Positions 1,342-42,108 of a DNA stretch of 64,000 nucleotides are shown here, piece by piece. A program made the position numbers and the translations under genes. Positions within the stretch are counted from its first letter, which is position 1; each line of letters opens with the position of its first letter. This DNA comes from Escherichia coli (GTDB lineage Bacteria; Pseudomonadota; Gammaproteobacteria; Enterobacterales; Enterobacteriaceae). The notes under the pieces are model-generated. The model saw only the letters and a program-made list of their open reading frames with translations, did no database searches and was not told the origin of the DNA. The stretch is from NCBI RefSeq assembly GCF_003334355.1, contig NZ_QOWP01000005.1. One strand, given 5' to 3'.

Positions 1342-2745
1342 TCAGGAAGGAAATGCGAGTGATTTCACCGTCACCGGCACAACCGATCCGCCAAAAAGAG
1401 GCGTACCAATGTCGATATAGTCCCCCGCGCGGACAATCACTTCGTCAATGACTGCCAACGGGAGTTGTTGTAGCTGTGGGCGCAACAACATGCCCAGAGC
1501 TTTACCAAAGTCCTGCCCGGCCACCACCAGCAGGGGATGCGGATTCGGAAAACGCGCGACGAAATCGACCAACGCGTTGATGACCGTCAGTACCGCGGCG
1601 TAACGCACAGGCAGCGAGGCGGGAAGCGCCAGCACGTACGCGTCAGTTTTGGGATCAAGATCCAGCTGAATCAGCGCCTGTTGCCAGGCCCCCACCAGAT
1701 CCGTTTCATCAATCGGGATCGCCACCGGCAAATTGCGCAGCGGCAGTTGTACGCCCTCAAGCCAGATTGTGCTGCCAGAGAGCGAAAGGGTATGCGCGCC
1801 CGCGCCAATCACCGTGGCGCGCACGGTTTGCGCCGGAAACTGTACGTTCATCTCACGCAGGCGCGGATGGTCATGCAGCGCAGTTGCCAGCAGCGGGCCA
1901 ATATCGGCAAAACAGAACGGGTCGGCGGGCTGGTGGCGATAACATTCGCCCACGCCGCCAGAAAGCGTAATGATTTCGGGCGTAACACCTGCGGGCAGCA
2001 AACCGGTTTGCATCAATGCCTGCGCGAGCGGTGAGAGCGTTCCGTCAATCACTTCGACAATCAGTTCTGCCATCCGCCGGGTCACCTGCACCAGCTGCGC
2101 GCCGGTCAGCGAACGGGCGTCGGTGCCTGCACCGAAGCACTCATCCACAATCATCTGCCCCGGTTTATGAGCGTAAACCACGCGCCCGTGGCTGTCGGTT
2201 TCCAGCAGGCGACCACCGACGTTGAGGCAGGCAGTGCCGCTGATTTTTCCGGCATCGAACAGGGCGTAGTTCGCGGTGCCACCGCCGATGTCGATATTCA
2301 GTACCCGACACAGCCGTTGTTCAGAAAGGGTTTGTGCCCCGGCTCCGTGACCGGCGATCACGGATTCGAGGTGCGGCCCGGCGCTGGCAACGACAAAATC
2401 GCCCAGCGACTGAGAGAGCGCCATCACCGCCGGGCGAGCATTGCGGGTTTTCGCGCTTTCACCGGTGATGATGATGGCACCAGAATCAACGCTTTCCGGC
2501 TCAATACCCGCAGCATGATATTGCTCGAGTATTAAGGTTTTCAGTTCCGCTTCTTTTAAACCGCCCTGTTTATCGACAGGGGTAAAGAACACCGGACTTT
2601 GCCAGCTAATTTCGCGTTTAATGAATTCGTAGCGCGGCACCTGCGACACCGCCGCACGGTTAACCAGCTCCAGCCGGGAGAAAATCACCTGGGTGGTGGT
2701 GGTGCCGATATCGATACCGACGCTCAATAGCTGGCGAGTGTTCAC
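1342..2745 (-). CDS. eutA: ethanolamine ammonia-lyase reactivase EutA
   Basis: 467-aa ORF from track; apparent GTG start; sequence recognised as EutA. Confidence 0.93.
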   Translation of the reverse strand: MNTRQLLSVGIDIGTTTTQVIFSRLELVNRAAVSQVPRYEFIKREISWQSPVFFTPVDKQGGLKEAELKTLILEQYHAAGIEPESVDSGAIIITGESAKTRNARPAVMALSQSLGDFVVASAGPHLESVIAGHGAGAQTLSEQRLCRVLNIDIGGGTANYALFDAGKISGTACLNVGGRLLETDSHGRVVYAHKPGQMIVDECFGAGTDARSLTGAQLVQVTRRMAELIVEVIDGTLSPLAQALMQTGLLPAGVTPEIITLSGGVGECYRHQPADPFCFADIGPLLATALHDHPRLREMNVQFPAQTVRATVIGAGAHTLSLSGSTIWLEGVQLPLRNLPVAIPIDETDLVGAWQQALIQLDLDPKTDAYVLALPASLPVRYAAVLTVINALVDFVARFPNPHPLLVVAGQDFGKALGMLLRPQLQQLPLAVIDEVIVRAGDYIDIGTPLFGGSVVPVTVKSLAFPS

Positions 2746-3983: not shown

Positions 3984-4184
<201 letters not shown>

Positions 4185-5372
4185 TTATTGCGCCGCTGCG
4201 TACAGGCCGACAATCTGCTCCAGGCTGGCGGTACGCGGGTTACTGCGCAGACAAATATCTTCCAGCGCGGCCTGCGCCCATGCGCCGTAATGCGCAGATG
4301 TCGCACCAACATCGCCCAGTCGTTTACCAATCCCAACTTCCGCAATCAGCTCACTTACCGCGTTAATAGCGTCACGATCGTCGGATTTTTTAGTTCGCAG
4401 TGCCCGACCAATCTGACTAAAGCGTTCACGACAAACCATCCGGTTAAATTCCATCACCGTTGGCAGCAACATGGCGTTCGCGAGACCGTGCGGAATATGC
4501 AGCGCCGCGCCCGGCTGATGCGCCATCGCGTGGCACAACCCAAGACCCGCACTGGAAAACGCCATTCCCGCCATACATGAAGCCAGTAACATGCTCTCGC
4601 GCGCGGCAAGGTCGTGACCGTAGCCCACCGCTTTCGGCAGCGATTTGCCAATCATCGCAATGGCACCAATCGCCAGGCTGTCGGTAAACGGTGTAGCGTT
4701 CAGGGCGCTGTATGCTTCAATGGCATGGGTTAACGCATCAATGCCGGTCATCGCCGTGACATGCGACGGCACACCTTCGGTCAATGCGGCGTCGAGGATC
4801 GCCACATCCGGCATCAGCGAGGCATGGGCTAACACCTGCTTGCGCCCGCTCACCGCGTCGATAATCACCGTTACATTGGTGGTTTCAGAGCCGGTTCCGG
4901 CGGTCGTTGGAATGGCAATCAGCGGCAAGCGCGGTTGCAGAACGCTGGTTTCTGACATCTCTGCCAGCGTGCTATCGGGGTTCGTCACCAGCAACGCCAC
5001 GGCTTTCGCCGCATCCAGCACCGAGCCGCCGCCAAATGCGATCACCCCATCACAGCCTGACTCACGCAACTGCGCCACGGCTGCACACACGTCGGTAATG
5101 CACGGTTCGCCCACCGGACATGGCCAGAGCGTCATGGCGATGCCTTTAACAGCCAGGCTGCGCGTCAGCCCGGCGGTCATCCCCGCCTGATGCAAAAAGC
5201 TGTCTGCCATCACGAACAGATGTTTCAGCCCACGCGTTTGCGCTTGCTGCCCGCAACTGCTCACCGCGCCCGGACCGCAAAGCGTCACCGGTGGAACGCT
5301 AAATGTTTTTACCCGTTGCAGATTCAGGGTATCGAACGCCTGAAAGAGCGCGGTCTGCAATTCATTTTGCAT
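4185..5372 (-). CDS. eutG: iron-containing alcohol dehydrogenase EutG
   Basis: ORF track 4185..5399; start trimmed to internal Met (MQNELQTALFQ) giving 395 aa; Fe-ADH family sequence. Confidence 0.9.
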   Translation of the reverse strand: MQNELQTALFQAFDTLNLQRVKTFSVPPVTLCGPGAVSSCGQQAQTRGLKHLFVMADSFLHQAGMTAGLTRSLAVKGIAMTLWPCPVGEPCITDVCAAVAQLRESGCDGVIAFGGGSVLDAAKAVALLVTNPDSTLAEMSETSVLQPRLPLIAIPTTAGTGSETTNVTVIIDAVSGRKQVLAHASLMPDVAILDAALTEGVPSHVTAMTGIDALTHAIEAYSALNATPFTDSLAIGAIAMIGKSLPKAVGYGHDLAARESMLLASCMAGMAFSSAGLGLCHAMAHQPGAALHIPHGLANAMLLPTVMEFNRMVCRERFSQIGRALRTKKSDDRDAINAVSELIAEVGIGKRLGDVGATSAHYGAWAQAALEDICLRSNPRTASLEQIVGLYAAAQ

Positions 5373-6198
5373 ATAGCCCCTCCGCTTTCTCTCGCCCACT
5401 ACTGGCGATCGCCAGCGGGGTCATAAACAAACTGTGCTGCGGTAAATGCACCTGTAACGCCGGGAATTGTTTGCGAAACAGTTCCGCCACGCCCGGTTGC
5501 AAACAAGAGCCGCCCGCCAGCCATAAATCAGTAATGCCCTGCCCTTCAATATGCCGGGCGACAATGTCCGCCATTTTTTCGTACACCGGTTTCACCGCAG
5601 GCCAAATCTCTTCACCGTGACCGCGCTTGTACTGCTCCGCCTCTTCCAGCGAAATACGGCGATTTCCGGCGAGAGTCAGAGAGATGTGATGTCCGCCGGT
5701 GGCTTCATCCGCCGAGTACGTCACCTTGCCCTTTTTCACGATGGCAATGCCGGTAGTGCCGCCGCCGATATCCACTACACCGGCGTTGTCCAGTTGCAGC
5801 AGATCCGCAACTGCGGTTGGCTCATCCAGCACATGGCTCACTTCCAGCCCGGCAGATTCCAGCACGTTGATGGAAATACGCGGGTCCGTACCTGGAGGAA
5901 ATGAAGTCGCCGCATGGCTAAAACGAAGACCGAATTGCTGCTCAAGAGTGTCGAGATGGCGACGAACAATGGTGACCGCACCGAAGAAATCCCAGACGAT
6001 GCCGTCGCGGACCACATCGGCCCAGTCGAGGCATACCGCCACCGGCTGACCGTCGCGGTCAACAACCATCGACACCACATCGCAGGTGCCCAGATCCACC
6101 CCCAGCCACAGCGGAGATTCCGTCGCGGCGGGCGTCTGGTTACACAGCGTTGCCGCCGTTTGCAGACGTGGGGTGAGCCATTGTTCGTCGTGCGCCAT
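5362..6198 (-). CDS. eutJ: ethanolamine utilisation chaperone-like protein EutJ (actin/Hsp70 fold)
   Basis: 278-aa ORF; overlaps eutG start; recognised as EutJ. Confidence 0.93.
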   Translation of the reverse strand: MAHDEQWLTPRLQTAATLCNQTPAATESPLWLGVDLGTCDVVSMVVDRDGQPVAVCLDWADVVRDGIVWDFFGAVTIVRRHLDTLEQQFGLRFSHAATSFPPGTDPRISINVLESAGLEVSHVLDEPTAVADLLQLDNAGVVDIGGGTTGIAIVKKGKVTYSADEATGGHHISLTLAGNRRISLEEAEQYKRGHGEEIWPAVKPVYEKMADIVARHIEGQGITDLWLAGGSCLQPGVAELFRKQFPALQVHLPQHSLFMTPLAIASSGREKAEGLYAK

Positions 6199-8349: not shown

Positions 8350-9366
8350 TCATTCAACCAGTGTTTGTAAACTGCTTTCGCGGTTCACTTCTGTCTGACG
8401 CGGCACAGCTGCCACCAGCGCCAGCTCGATAATTTCCTGCACGCTACAACCACGAGAGAGATCGTGCATCGGCGCGGCAAGTCCTTGTATCAGTGGCCCG
8501 ACGGCACGATATCCGCCGAGTCGTTGTGCGATTTTGTAACCAATATTTCCGGCTTCCAGCGACGGAAAAACCATCACATTGGCCTTGCCCTGTAGCGGGC
8601 TGGCAGGCGCTTTTTGCGCCGCCACTTCCGGCACGAAGGCGGCGTCAAACTGTAACTCGCCATCCACCACCAGCTTTGGTGCGCGCTCACGGACGATTTC
8701 TGTCGCCTGCTGGACGTTAGCAACACAGGGGTGACGGGCGCTACCATTGCTGGAAAACGACAGCATCGCCACGCGCGGCTCTTCTCCGGTGATGGCGCGC
8801 CAGGTTTCGGCACTGGCAAGCGCGATATCCGCCAGCTGCGCCGCCGTCGGCTGTGGCACCACGCTGCAATCGGCAAAGCCCAACGCCGGGCCGCTGTACT
8901 GTGGCAACATCAGGAAAATGGAAGAGAGCGTTTTACAGCCTGGCTGCAAGCCGATAATGCGTAATCCGGCACGCAGCACATTTGCCGTGGAAGAGAGGTT
9001 GCCCGCGATACAGACATCCGCTTTACCGGCGCTGACCATTGCTGCGGCGAACATCAGAGGGTCGGTAAGTTTTTCCAGCGCATCCGGCGGCGTTTTTTCG
9101 CCCGCGCGGGCCAGCCAGCGATGAGCAAATTCTTCCCGCATTGCGAGGTTGCCATGCGGATCAATCACCTGTAGCCCGTCCATCGCCACGCCGTGACTGA
9201 GCGCAAACTGACGAAGTTCAAACGGATTGGCGACCAGAATGGGCGTTGCCAGACCTTGTTGATGTAAATATTGCGCGGCTTTCAGCACACGTTGGTCTAA
9301 CGCATCCGGAAAAACCACTCTGGCGGGCGCTCGCAACGCCAGTTCACGACAACGTTCAATAATCAT
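8350..9366 (-). CDS. eutD: phosphotransacetylase EutD
   Basis: 338-aa ORF; Pta-like sequence; overlaps eutM region by 4 nt in the track. Confidence 0.93.
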
Positions 9367-10165
9367 TGCGTTCCCCCAGTCGTTGTTGGATCTGCTTCAC
9401 CGTTAGCGGCTGCTTCGTTACGCTCAGGATCATCATCACGTAGACCGTGCTGGAAAGGCGGTTCAGCGCCTGCAAAATGTCCGGGCGTAATACTTCAAAG
9501 CTGCGGGTGATAAAGACCTGCGCCGCTACGGTTTCGGTTTCCCGCACTTTGGTGCGTAGCAGATTGAGCAACGCAGCATCGCGCCCGTGGCTGGCTTCCG
9601 GCACCAGATGATCGTGGTCGAGATAGCGCAGCGGCTGATGAGAAAGCCGATGCAGATCTTCGTCAGAAAGCCCGACAATCGCCTGGCAGCCCAGCGGTTC
9701 CCCCAGCGCATCGGCGCGCATAATGTTGCCAAGACGCGAACGGATATCCGCCAGCCACGGCTGCCACGGTTCCGCCAGTTCAATTTGCAGCCACACTACC
9801 AGCGCAATGGTGCTGTCGAGAACCGCGCGAAAACCCAGACGCGGATCGCTTTTGGCGACCATTTTTTCCGCCGACAGGTGAGTCAGCGTATCCGGCTTTT
9901 TTGCCACCGGCTGGCGACACAGTTCGCAGCACGCCTGCGGATGTTCATCGCTACTGGTCAGCCCATGAACGGGCTGCGGCTGCTGCTGTTCATCGTCAAC
10001 AAACAGGCGGCCCTGCTCGTCAATAAACTTGATGCGCAGATGGCGGCTTTCCAGCAACTCCCGGGCAGAGGGCGTCAGGCGACTGTCCGCAGGGAGATGG
10101 ATCTCTGCGCCTTCGCTGAGCGTATGGTTCGCTCTTAGCCATGCTTCGGTGATGAAATCTTTCAT
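9356..10165 (-). CDS. eutT: EutT corrinoid adenosyltransferase
   Basis: [22 protein letters not shown] recognised as EutT; exact start not verified. Confidence 0.88.
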
Positions 10166-10863
10166 AGGGATTGCCAGTTAGCCGGCCAGGCGACATACAG
10201 GAATTTCACGCTGGATGTCGTACCAAATTCGATGCTGGAGCCTTTCGGGATAAACATCACGTCGCCTGCTTTGGCGATCATGGTTTGGCCTTCGTGGCGA
10301 ACATGCAGCTCCCCTTCCAGCACCATGTCGATTTCGTCGTAGTTCAGGGTCCACGGGAAGAATGCGTTCTCCCACTGCATAAAACCGGCGGCCATGCTGC
10401 TGCCGTCGTCTCCGGTCACAAGATCAGTCAAGCCCACGCAATGCGGCTCTGCGCCGTCGAAACGACCAAACTTGACGCTACTGCCATCAATCACTTTGAT
10501 GCCGCCTTTGCCGGTCACCGATTTGAAGCTCGGCTGCATTGCGCCCTGCTCCAGCGACTGTTTTTCCTTCATCACTTTTTCCATCAGCTGTGCGACCAGG
10601 CTTTCGGTAAACTGGCCTTCCGGCAGCTGGGCAATGATGGTTTCGCGGATGCGCTGGCTTTCGGTTTTGTCGGCTGGCACGCTGGCGGGCACGGACGCCG
10701 TTACCGGGATCGATTCATCACATTCGGTGATGGTAAAACCCAGTAGATCCGCCACTTCACGGGCTTCCGGGGTAATAATGCTGGCGCGCAGAACCACGGA
10801 CATTGCCTGTTCGCCGCGCGCGTGTGCTTCACGAATATCATTCGCTGTGATGAGTTTTTTCAC
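10162..10863 (-). CDS. eutQ: ethanolamine utilisation protein EutQ (cupin domain)
   Basis: 233-aa ORF; recognised as EutQ; 4-nt overlap with eutT. Confidence 0.92.
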   Translation of the reverse strand: MKKLITANDIREAHARGEQAMSVVLRASIITPEAREVADLLGFTITECDESIPVTASVPASVPADKTESQRIRETIIAQLPEGQFTESLVAQLMEKVMKEKQSLEQGAMQPSFKSVTGKGGIKVIDGSSVKFGRFDGAEPHCVGLTDLVTGDDGSSMAAGFMQWENAFFPWTLNYDEIDMVLEGELHVRHEGQTMIAKAGDVMFIPKGSSIEFGTTSSVKFLYVAWPANWQSL

Positions 10864-11317
10864 CTGCTTCCTCCTGTTTGGTGAGAGATGCCAGATAATC
10901 CACCAGTTGCTGCACGCTTTGCGGGTCGTGGCTGTTTAGCACGAAAATCGGCTCTTCGAAACCCGTCTCAAGCAATAACTTTCGCGTTGCGGCGACGTCA
11001 GCATCTGGCATGTCCGTTTTACTGATGACGGCGATTTGCCGTTTGCTGACGCCAATATCCAGCAACCCGGCAGGCAACCGACTTTCCGGGTCATTTGCGC
11101 CATGGACATAGATCAGCATGTCTACATCCTGTAGCGTGGTAATTAAGGCGTGATACCAGCGGGGATGGTTAAAATATTCACCCGGCGTATCAATATCGCC
11201 CTTATCATTAAATTCCACGGCCTGTGTTTTTCTGGCGAGGGTATAATTCCCCTGCAACGCATTAAATAACGTTGTTTTTCCTGCCCCGACGCTACCCACA
11301 AACGCAATTCGTTTCAT
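10838..11317 (-). CDS. eutP: ethanolamine utilisation GTPase/acetate-kinase-like protein EutP
   Basis: 159-aa ORF with Walker A GSVGAGKTT; 26-nt overlap with eutQ. Confidence 0.92.
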   Translation of the reverse strand: MKRIAFVGSVGAGKTTLFNALQGNYTLARKTQAVEFNDKGDIDTPGEYFNHPRWYHALITTLQDVDMLIYVHGANDPESRLPAGLLDIGVSKRQIAVISKTDMPDADVAATRKLLLETGFEEPIFVLNSHDPQSVQQLVDYLASLTKQEEAGEKTHHSE

Positions 11318-28837: not shown

Positions 28838-28918
28838 GTAGGCCGGATAAGGCGTTAACGCCGCATCCGGCAATGGTGAACGATGCCTGATGCGACGCTC
28901 ACGCGTCTTATCAGGCCA
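28838..28918. repeat. REP pair between ypfN and ypfH
   Basis: GCCGGATAAGGCGTTAACGCCGCATCCGGCA and GCCTGATGCGACGCTCACGCGTCTTATCAGGCC read directly. Confidence 0.85.
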
Positions 28919-39706: not shown

Positions 39707-40653
39707 ATGAGACAAACTCTTTGCGACGGATATCTGGTCATTTTTGCGTTAGCACAGGCCGTGATTCTGCTGATGCTAACCCCACTTTTTACGGGTATTT
39801 CCCGGCAGATACGCGCGCGTATGCACTCCCGCCGCGGGCCGGAGATCTGGCAGGATTATCGCGATATCCACAAACTGTTTAAACGCCAGGAAGTTGCGCC
39901 TATATCTTCAGGTCTGATGTTCCGCCTGATGCCGTGGGTATTAATCAGCAGCATGCTGGTGCTGGCGATGGCCCTACCACTATTTATTACCGTTTCCCTT
40001 TTGCGGGCGGCGGCGATCTGATCACCCTTATCTATCTTCTTGCCCTGTTTCGTTTTTTCTTTGCTCTTTCAGGGCTGGATACCGGAAGCCCGTTTGCGGG
40101 AGTCGGTGCCAGTCGCGAGTTGACGCTCGGCATTCTGGTCGAACCCATGCTCATTCTCTCACTGCTGGTATTGGCGCTGATAGCGGATTCCACGCATATC
40201 GAGATGATCAGCAATACGCTGGCGATGGGCTGGAACTCGCCGCTAACCACCGTACTGGCGTTACTGGCCTGTGGTTTTGCCTGCTTCATAGAGATGGGAA
40301 AAATTCCCTTTGATGTTGCTGAAGCAGAACAGGAATTACAGGAAGGCCCGCTGACCGAATATTCCGGTGCCGGGCTGGCGTTGGCGAAATGGGGACTGGG
40401 GCTGAAACAGGTCGTGATGGCAGCACTGTTTGTGGCCCTGTTTCTGCCCTTTGGGCGCGCGCAAGAACTTTCTCTCACCTGCCTGCTGACTTCACTTGTC
40501 GTTACGCTGCTCAAGGTTTTGCTGATTTTTGTACTGGCTTCAATCGCAGAAAACACGCTGGCACGCGGGCGTTTTTTACTCATTCACCATGTGACCTGGC
40601 TTGGCTTCAGCCTTGCTGCGCTTGCATGGGTCTTCTGGTTAACCGGTCTGTAA
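39707..40653 (+). pseudogene. hyfC: hydrogenase-4 membrane subunit HyfC (NuoH/HycD-like), disrupted by a -1 frameshift at ~39996-40002
   Basis: Two consecutive ORFs in different frames (39686..40021 and 39934..40653) together cover a HyfC-like protein; span is 947 nt, one short of the 948 expected for 315 aa; shift lies in a CCCTTTT tract. Confidence 0.8.
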
Positions 40654-40669
40654 GGAGCACTGACGGAAT

Positions 40670-42108
40670 ATGGAAAATCTTGCTCTGACGACGTTAATGC
40701 TGCCTTTTATCGGCGCACTGGTCGTTTCGTTTTCGCCACAACGTCGGGCCGCCGAATGGGGGTTTTGTTCGCCGCACTGACCACGCTGTGCATGTTGTCG
40801 CTGATCTCCGCGTTTTATCAGGCCGATAAAGTTGCCGTCACGTTGACGTTGGTCAACGTGGGGGATGTGGCATTGTTTGGCCTGGTCATTGATCGCGTGA
40901 GTACGCTGATTCTGTTTGTGGTGGTGTTTCTCGGTTTGCTGGTCACGATCTACTCCACGGGTTATCTGACGGATAAAAATCGCGAACACCCGCATAACGG
41001 CACGAATCGTTATTACGCATTTTTGCTGGTGTTTATCGGCGCGATGGCGGGACTGGTACTCTCCTCGACGCTGCTCGGTCAGTTGTTGTTTTTTGAAATT
41101 ACGGGCGGCTGCTCCTGGGCGTTGATCAGTTATTACCAGAGCGATAAAGCGCAGCGTTCAGCACTAAAAGCGTTACTTATCACTCATATCGGCTCGTTGG
41201 GGTTGTATCTTGCCGCCGCCACGCTGTTTTTGCAGACCGGAACGTTTGCGCTTAGCGCGATGAGCGAGTTACACGGCGACGCACGTTATCTGGTTTATGG
41301 CGGCATCCTGTTTGCCGCGTGGGGGAAATCGGCCCAGCTACCGATGCAAGCGTGGCTACCGGACGCAATGGAAGCGCCAACACCGATCAGCGCCTATCTC
41401 CACGCCGCATCGATGGTGAAAGTGGGCGTTTACATTTTTGCCCGCGCCATTATCGACGGCGGCAATATCCCGCATGTGATTGGCGGCGTTGGCATGGTCA
41501 TGGCCCTGGTCACCATTCTTTATGGATTTCTGATGTATTTACCACAGCAGGATATGAAGCGGTTGCTGGCCTGGTCGACCATCACTCAACTTGGCTGGAT
41601 GTTCTTCGGCTTGTCGCTCTCCATCTTCGGCTCGCGGCTGGCGCTGGAGGGTAGCATCGCCTACATCGTCAACCACGCGTTCGCTAAAAGCCTGTTTTTC
41701 CTTGTAGCAGGTGCGCTGAGTTACAGCTGCGGCACGCGCTTGTTGCCGCGTCTGCGTGGCGTATTGCACACCCTGCCGTTGCCTGGCGTGGGTTTCTGCG
41801 TGGCAGCGCTGGCAATTACCGGCGTGCCGCCGTTCAACGGCTTCTTCAGTAAATTCCCGCTGTTTGCTGCCGGTTTTGCGTTGTCAGTGGAGTACTGGAT
41901 CCTGCTGCCCGCCATGATTCTGCTGATGATTGAATCGGTCGCCAGTTTCGCCTGGTTTATTCGCTGGTTTGGTCGCGTCGTGCCTGGCAAACCGAGCGAG
42001 GCCGTCGCCGATGCCGCACCGCTGCCAGGGTCAATGCGCCTGGTGTTGATTGTACTGATTGTGATGTCGCTGATTTCCAGCGTAATCGCCGCGACCTGGT
42101 TGCAGTAA
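40670..42108 (+). pseudogene. hyfD: hydrogenase-4 membrane subunit HyfD (NuoL/M-like), disrupted by a -1 frameshift at ~40758-40762
   Basis: ATG at 40670 with RBS reads MENLALTTLMLPFIGALVVSFSPQRRAAEW then hits a stop; the remainder continues in another frame (track ORF 40756..42108); span is 1439 nt, one short of 1440 for 479 aa; shift lies in a G5 run. Confidence 0.8.

Follow-up and report, generated by a model that had tools for sequence, protein, structure and literature searches.

The genes eutP and eutQ overlap by 26 nt in the 64,000-nt stretch of DNA analysed here (the window). The overlap is a genuine one, out of frame and between two real genes. Taken as a whole, the best explanation is very probably that it is a by-product of a frame change at the end of eutP. 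The sequence-only reading had placed an overlap of this length at 10838-10863, and this was borne out by the stop and start coordinates and by the RefSeq annotation. The overlap was already known from the RefSeq and UniProt gene models, and it was mentioned and worked around in a study of Salmonella LT2 (Yang et al. 2025, PMC12487888). The comparative reconstruction adds detail and no new kind of feature.

The sequence of the window is chromosomal DNA of E. coli. Over 1.3 kb around the overlap, 5404 of the 5426 complete E. coli genomes compared were 96-99.9% identical to it, and the 50-nt junction was identical in 5361 records from these genomes. In a genome of 99.8% identity the NCBI annotation also calls the 26-nt overlap. 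The minus strand carries the eut operon, with the gene order eutS-P-Q-T-D-M-N-E-J-G-H-A, and eutB extends beyond the window start. EutP and EutQ are both named by RefSeq, and each ORF has homology to known proteins as far as the overlap. Their tblastn matches were adjacent in 79 loci. The EutQ cupin was identified as a PF06249 match (residues 85-232), and solved EutQ structures are of the C-terminal cupin domain only. A PF10662 match was found on the EutP part of the EutP-EutQ fusion entries described below. EutP codon 125 (10941-10943, minus strand) reads Val here (EEPIFVLNSH) and Glu in E. coli entries P0005 and P0013 (EEPIFELNSH), a difference near the C-terminal part of the GTPase-like domain. 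The features of the junction are as follows.

10838-11317, minus strand: eutP coding sequence, 159 aa, P-loop EutP/PduV family
10162-10863, minus strand: eutQ coding sequence, 233 aa, N-terminal shell/cargo-binding region and C-terminal cupin
10838-10863, minus strand: stretch shared by eutP and eutQ, 26 nt, same call in the RefSeq annotation
10840-10838, minus strand: eutP stop codon TGA, inside eutQ codons Asn8/Asp9 (AAT GAT)
10863-10861, minus strand: eutQ start codon GTG, the first ATG/GTG/TTG in its open frame
10870-10875, minus strand: eutQ Shine-Dalgarno AGGAGG, spacer of 6 nt, within eutP codons Q-E-E
10855-10860, minus strand: run of six A (A6) directly after the eutQ GTG; loss of one A would fuse EutP to EutQ

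The shared stretch comprises eutQ codons 1-8 and 2 nt. On the eutP side it comprises the last eight sense codons (GEKTHHSE, minus the first G of GGT) and the stop. The eutQ frame is +1 relative to eutP, and the last 7-8 residues of EutP are translated out of frame over the N-terminal codons of eutQ. Folding of the RNA at the junction was no stronger than that of shuffled controls (z = 0.12).

The survey of the junction covered 75 species in which eutQ directly follows eutP. Across them the eutQ start was fixed while the eutP stop moved, giving the following geometries (negative values are overlaps in nt).

-4 (NTGA): 21 species, among them Buttiauxella, Pseudomonas and Iodobacter
Gap of 11-55 nt: 20 species, among them Morganella and Marinobacter
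-17: 3 species of the Thauera group
-23: 24 species of Citrobacter, Salmonella, Klebsiella and Pseudocitrobacter
-26: 7 species, in Escherichia, C. sedlakii, Yokenella and Entomohabitans

The number of bases between the Glu codons encoded by the Shine-Dalgarno and the eutQ start separates these groups. It is 2 mod 3 in the -4 species, where eutP reads NNA TGA. In the enteric clade, with GCAG in E. coli and AGGGCAG in Citrobacter, it is 1 mod 3. This takes the TGA of GTGA out of the eutP frame, which then extends to its next stop. This stop is a TAA at -23 where eutQ Ala7 is GCT (Citrobacter, Salmonella and Klebsiella). It is the TGA inside AAT GAT, 3 nt later at -26, where Ala7 is GCG or GCC (GCG in E. 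coli). The Salmonella LT2 junction has the same genes, GTG start, Shine-Dalgarno and frame relationship as that of E. coli (PMC12487888). It differs in that E. coli has one extra EutP codon, the TAA stop having been lost with GCG in place of GCT, and the two geometries are thus one change apart, synonymous for eutQ. As the eutQ start is fixed while the eutP stop moves, the long overlap is a clade-specific run-on of eutP.

The proposed course of events would begin from the arrangement that appears usual in other bacteria, which is either a short gap or an NTGA in which the eutP stop and the eutQ start have bases in common. In the lineage of Escherichia, Salmonella, Citrobacter and Klebsiella the length of the spacer would shift the eutP frame and the NTGA stop would no longer be read. 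Ribosomes would be recruited to the eutQ GUG by the strong AGGAGG (10875-10870) within the last eutP codons, and eutP reading would continue over eutQ codons 1-8 to the TGA at 10840-10838. Selection would act on the N-terminus of EutQ, part of the shell-binding H1/H2 region, leaving the EutP tail free to vary. EutQ would be made mainly by de novo initiation at its own Shine-Dalgarno and GUG and not by ribosomes that have just finished eutP. Ribosomes terminating eutP 23 nt past the eutQ start might occasionally reinitiate and would not be the main source of EutQ. That most EutQ comes from such independent initiation is suggested by protein ratios and published distance rules, and the overlap itself appears to have no dedicated function. 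The -23/-26 geometry has been kept across a whole clade of genera, which could reflect weak selection rather than inertia. The junction serves as a worked example of how a single-base frame change turns a short NTGA overlap into a longer one, after which the overprinted tail of the upstream protein evolves freely and the downstream N-terminus stays conserved.

The best-surviving alternative is that of tight coupling, in which ribosomes stop at the end of eutP, back up about 23 nt, are captured by AGGAGG/GUG and reinitiate, so that EutQ is made in proportion to eutP translation. This was judged unlikely. The two genes are adjacent, overlap and share one transcript, the overlap is retained across the core Enterobacteriaceae, and the strong eutQ Shine-Dalgarno could capture post-termination ribosomes. 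There is also good documentation of coupling in E. coli for gene pairs that overlap or lie only a very short distance apart (PMC10666635; PMC12548453). However, reinitiation in native E. coli pairs drops steeply with distance, with -4, -1 and -8 as the enriched classes (PMC10666635; review PMC12548453). It is documented as efficient for stop-start distances of -8 to about +10 nt (PMC10666635), and eutP/eutQ at -26 lies well outside this range. Fixed proportions would also be expected of the products of a coupled pair and were not seen for EutP and EutQ. In E. coli W3110 grown on ethanolamine and B12, EutQ was the most abundant Eut protein by iBAQ (set to 100) and EutP stood at 7 (PMC11334477). 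This is a roughly 14-fold excess of EutQ, although steady-state protein ratios are no direct measure of initiation and EutP could be unstable. The two proteins form no known complex and localise differently, EutP being cytosolic and EutQ encapsulated, and in Salmonella a eutP deletion grows like wild type while a eutQ deletion does not (PMC12487888). The geometry itself ranges from gaps to -26 among species in which the proteins are conserved. No RNA structure sequestering the eutQ ribosome-binding site was found at the junction, leaving a mechanism based on unfolding by eutP ribosomes without support. Some reinitiation by ribosomes terminating 23 nt past the GUG may nevertheless occur, given the strong Shine-Dalgarno nearby.

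A second and slightly less probable possibility, also regarded as unlikely, is that the -23/-26 geometry is a selected device for setting a ratio, with Shine-Dalgarno loading at eutQ and ribosomes finishing eutP interfering mutually. If this were true, one mRNA would give little cytosolic EutP and much of the scaffold/kinase EutQ (about 1:14), and a medium-length overlap would have a functional use distinct from classical -4/-1 coupling.

Four further overlaps of 4-11 nt had been listed for the operon from the sequence, and all of them are present.

10162-10165, minus strand: eutQ/eutT ATGA overlap, 4 nt
9356-9366, minus strand: eutT/eutD overlap, 11 nt, arising from the loss of 1 nt in the A-run at 9371-9372
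5362-5372, minus strand: eutJ/eutG overlap, 11 nt, from the eutG ATG at 5372 that RefSeq also uses
2742-2745, minus strand: eutH/eutA GTGA overlap, 4 nt

The eutG ATG at 5372 has a Shine-Dalgarno duplex of -10.0 kcal/mol, and the upstream GTG at 5399 has no Shine-Dalgarno. Short NTGA overlaps are the classic geometry of termination-reinitiation coupling. The hyfH/hyfI pair in the same window is one of these and is a model pair of Huber et al. 2023 (PMC10666635). NTGA pairs resemble eutP and eutQ in being adjacent and co-directional on one mRNA and in having the Shine-Dalgarno of the second gene within the first. In eutP/eutQ, unlike in these pairs, stop and start are 23 nt apart, with the stop downstream, and the products are far from equimolar. 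The eutQ/eutT and eutH/eutA overlaps have exactly the NTGA geometry and their distance (-4) falls within the range of about -8 to +10 nt. The eutT/eutD and eutJ/eutG overlaps (-11) lie just outside this range.

The same reading had taken the overlaps to imply tight coupling for microcompartment assembly. This is not supported, in view of the EutQ to EutP ratio of about 100:7, the split localisation and the labile geometry described above, and of the distribution of overlaps in the window. Five of the 11 eut junctions overlap, and the probability of five or more is 0.10-0.47 for baseline rates of 0.24-0.40. In the hyf operon, which is not a microcompartment operon, overlaps are as frequent (4 of 9 junctions), and purM/purN and gcvR/bcp overlap too. 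The eut count is not above what an operon gives. The overlapping eut pairs encode enzymes and accessory proteins, whereas the shell genes eutS, eutM and eutN mostly lack overlaps and lie 11-106 nt from their neighbours.

The eutT/eutD junction was polymorphic within E. coli. In the window GGGGGAAACG is changed to GGGGGAACG, with 1 nt lost just before the eutD start. The C-terminus of EutT changes from ...LGETQ to ...LGERNDY and the protein lengthens from 267 to 269 aa. The 11-nt overlap is a minority allele, found in 258 of the 5426 complete genomes, ATCC 8739 and strain C included, while 5102 have a 4-nt ATGA overlap. A single-base indel upstream of the ATGA put the stop out of frame and moved it from -4 to -11, the kind of event also inferred for eutP/eutQ. 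The difference is that this is a recent within-species allele, not one fixed across genera. Across species the eutQ/eutT junction was at -4 in only 19 of about 75, with a positive gap elsewhere. The eutT/eutD junction was the only one that overlapped almost everywhere (68 of 73 species) and is therefore the best candidate for real coupling.

A third alternative, which had been raised from the sequence, is that the eutQ start is mis-called. EutQ would then begin downstream, at the ATG of codon 21 (10803-10801) or at GTG codons 23 or 37, and there would be no overlap. Long annotated overlaps are often start-call errors. An in-frame ATG does exist 20 codons downstream of the eutQ GTG, and GTG is rarer than ATG as a start codon. 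This alternative was considered very improbable, being contradicted by the strength of the Shine-Dalgarno, the conservation of the N-terminus and the pattern of synonymous substitution. Comparative and indirect experimental evidence indicates that the GTG at 10863-10861 is almost certainly the correct start. No in-frame ATG, GTG or TTG was found upstream of it within its open frame, and alternative starts could therefore only lie downstream. The GTG has a predicted anti-Shine-Dalgarno duplex of -10.3 kcal/mol, stronger than that of every other eut gene in the window, and the AGGAGG is conserved across enteric loci. The downstream candidates at codons 21, 23 and 37 lack a Shine-Dalgarno, their predicted duplexes reaching only -2.6 to -3.5 kcal/mol. 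Met21 is not conserved and is replaced by V, I or another residue in Citrobacter, Klebsiella and distant homologues.

Homologues of EutQ were searched for among 1.84 billion representative proteins. Many full-length homologues of 29-52% identity were found, with alignments beginning at residue 1-3 of both query and match. In 46 aligned homologues (27-87% identity) the N-terminal consensus was MKKLITAxDI and nearly all sequences began at the same column. Codons 2-20 are thus conserved down to about 27% identity. Genomes were scanned for eutQ loci with a seed alignment of 10 EutQ sequences, the alignment of 46 being too diverse. Of 79 loci from different species, 45 had ATG and 32 had GTG at the site matching the E. 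coli GTG, and residues K2, L4 and A7 of EutQ were invariant.

Within the overlap, variation was almost only synonymous for eutQ. Six of the seven variable columns in eutQ codons 1-8 were eutQ third positions in the 29 enterobacterial species with the long overlap, and EutQ residues 1-8 were VKKLITAN in 28 of them. The same bases gave 11 forms of the EutP tail in these species, for example GEKTHHSE, GEKTYHS and GEETHYR. From this mostly eutQ-synonymous variation and the variable EutP tail it follows that selection sees the eutQ frame. The overlapped eutQ codons showed the purifying selection that marks a genuine two-frame overlap. An annotation artefact would be marked by an unconserved N-terminal extension and by a downstream codon better suited as a start and preceded by a ribosome-binding site of its own, and eutQ showed neither.

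Experiments in Salmonella LT2 bear on the start indirectly. There eutQ codons 1-9 overlap eutP and were left in place in scarless chromosomal deletions (PMC12487888). Alleles without codons 9-41 or 9-99 still gave localised EutQ-mCherry, deletion of helix H1 (residues 9-21) broke the association of shell and cargo, and EutQ 1-99 was enough to target GFP to the compartment (PMC12487888). Deletion of codons 9-21 or 9-41 thus alters EutQ behaviour while localised protein is still made, which argues against a start downstream. No initiation-site profiling or N-terminal peptide data for EutQ were found in the literature searched. A search for the N-terminal peptide LITANDIR gave nothing relevant in the literature or in the supplements of PMC11334477. 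Tryptic peptides reporting eutQ codons 4-14 are LITANDIREAHAR and LITANDIRAAHAR, and the relevant PRIDE sets are PXD048973 (E. coli W3110, ethanolamine and B12) and PXD059040 (Salmonella).

The result is of little importance in itself and confirms the database start of EutQ. This start matters for engineering the N-terminal shell-binding region of EutQ or for deleting eutP, since eutP contains the ribosome-binding site of eutQ and its first 8-9 codons. In some Citrobacter and Klebsiella entries the EutQ start is placed 9-14 codons ahead of the conserved GTG (242-247 aa; loci L014, L017, L023, L024, L027 and L051; proteins P0099, P0106, P0107, P0114 and P0117). Such starts would make the overlap 50-65 nt. 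The extensions are unconserved, and in these entries the start appears to have been called too far upstream.

The least probable alternative, recoding, in which a +1 slip on the A6 run (GAA AAA ACT in the eutP frame) makes an EutP-EutQ fusion that the overlap serves, would account for the 384-aa fusions and the 243-aa entry ...EEAGEKLITAND in sequence databases and for the perfect re-pairing that the sequence predicts for tRNA-Lys after a +1 shift on AAA AAA, but these fusions are DNA-level frameshifts in draft and metagenomic assemblies and the chance that recoding occurs was put as close to negligible. A fusion made by frameshifting was rejected because of the absence of the five-A (A5) variant from complete genomes and the unconserved A-run. 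The A5 variant was found in none of the 5426 complete E. coli genomes and the A6 junction in 5408. A programmed frameshift would be expected to keep its slippery sequence among relatives that keep the overlap, and in 6 of the 29 enteric species (Klebsiella and others) AAG AAA replaces AAA AAA. The slip site is followed by neither a slow codon nor a stop, and the Shine-Dalgarno lies 11 nt upstream of the slip codon. In prfB a Shine-Dalgarno roughly 3 nt from the slip site stimulates +1 shifting.

The fusions of 384-396 aa and the 243-aa entry occur in draft, metagenome and Logan-derived sets (P0002, P0004, P0005, P0013 and P0109). They arise from frameshifts in the 3' part of eutP or from one A lost from the A6 run. 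The A5 junction variant underlies the 243-aa entry, and the complete-genome check covered this variant alone. Fusions of this kind arise easily because the 24 codons ahead of the GTG are also open in the eutQ frame.

The N-terminus of EutQ resembles that of EutT, the product of the next gene. Residues 1-43 of EutQ aligned to the EutT N-terminus without gaps, residue 1 to residue 1 (pairwise E 6e-5, 33% identity), and profile-profile comparison (hhalign) gave a probability of 84.6%. The putative module is of about 45 aa with the pattern MKxxIT..lR....G.......(I/L)TPxAR(E)l, and Pfam covers it in neither protein.

10713-10863, minus strand: EutQ residues 1-50, containing the putative N-terminal module
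10016-10165, minus strand: EutT residues 1-50, containing the putative N-terminal module

An HMM of the EutQ N-terminus matched no EutT or other ORF in 81 loci at E <= 0.01. Support for homology of the two N-termini, which these alignments suggest and do not prove, was graded as moderate because only pairwise and profile-profile comparison show the resemblance. The H1/H2 region of EutQ binds the shell (PMC12487888), and EutT might be recruited to the shell in the same way. No statement that EutT is recruited by an EutQ-like module was found in the literature searched.

Elsewhere in the window, hyfC (39707-40653) and hyfD (40670-42108) on the plus strand had interrupted frames, with longest ORFs of 239 and 450 aa. 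In E. coli ATCC 8739 the corresponding pseudogene calls read 'frameshifted', in agreement with these interruptions, and from the sequence hydrogenase 4 is probably non-functional in this strain. Compared to NZ_CP022959.1, a silver-adapted derivative of ATCC 8739, the window has 48 nt more in hyfG (in frame, at about 45500) and 6 nt more in hyfH (at about 46200). Matches to Rfam naRNA4 (RF02564, a family derived from REP elements) were found at 4049-4130 (minus strand) and 28841-28917. One of them lies inside the 216-nt intergenic gap between eutG and eutH, which is the largest gap of the operon.
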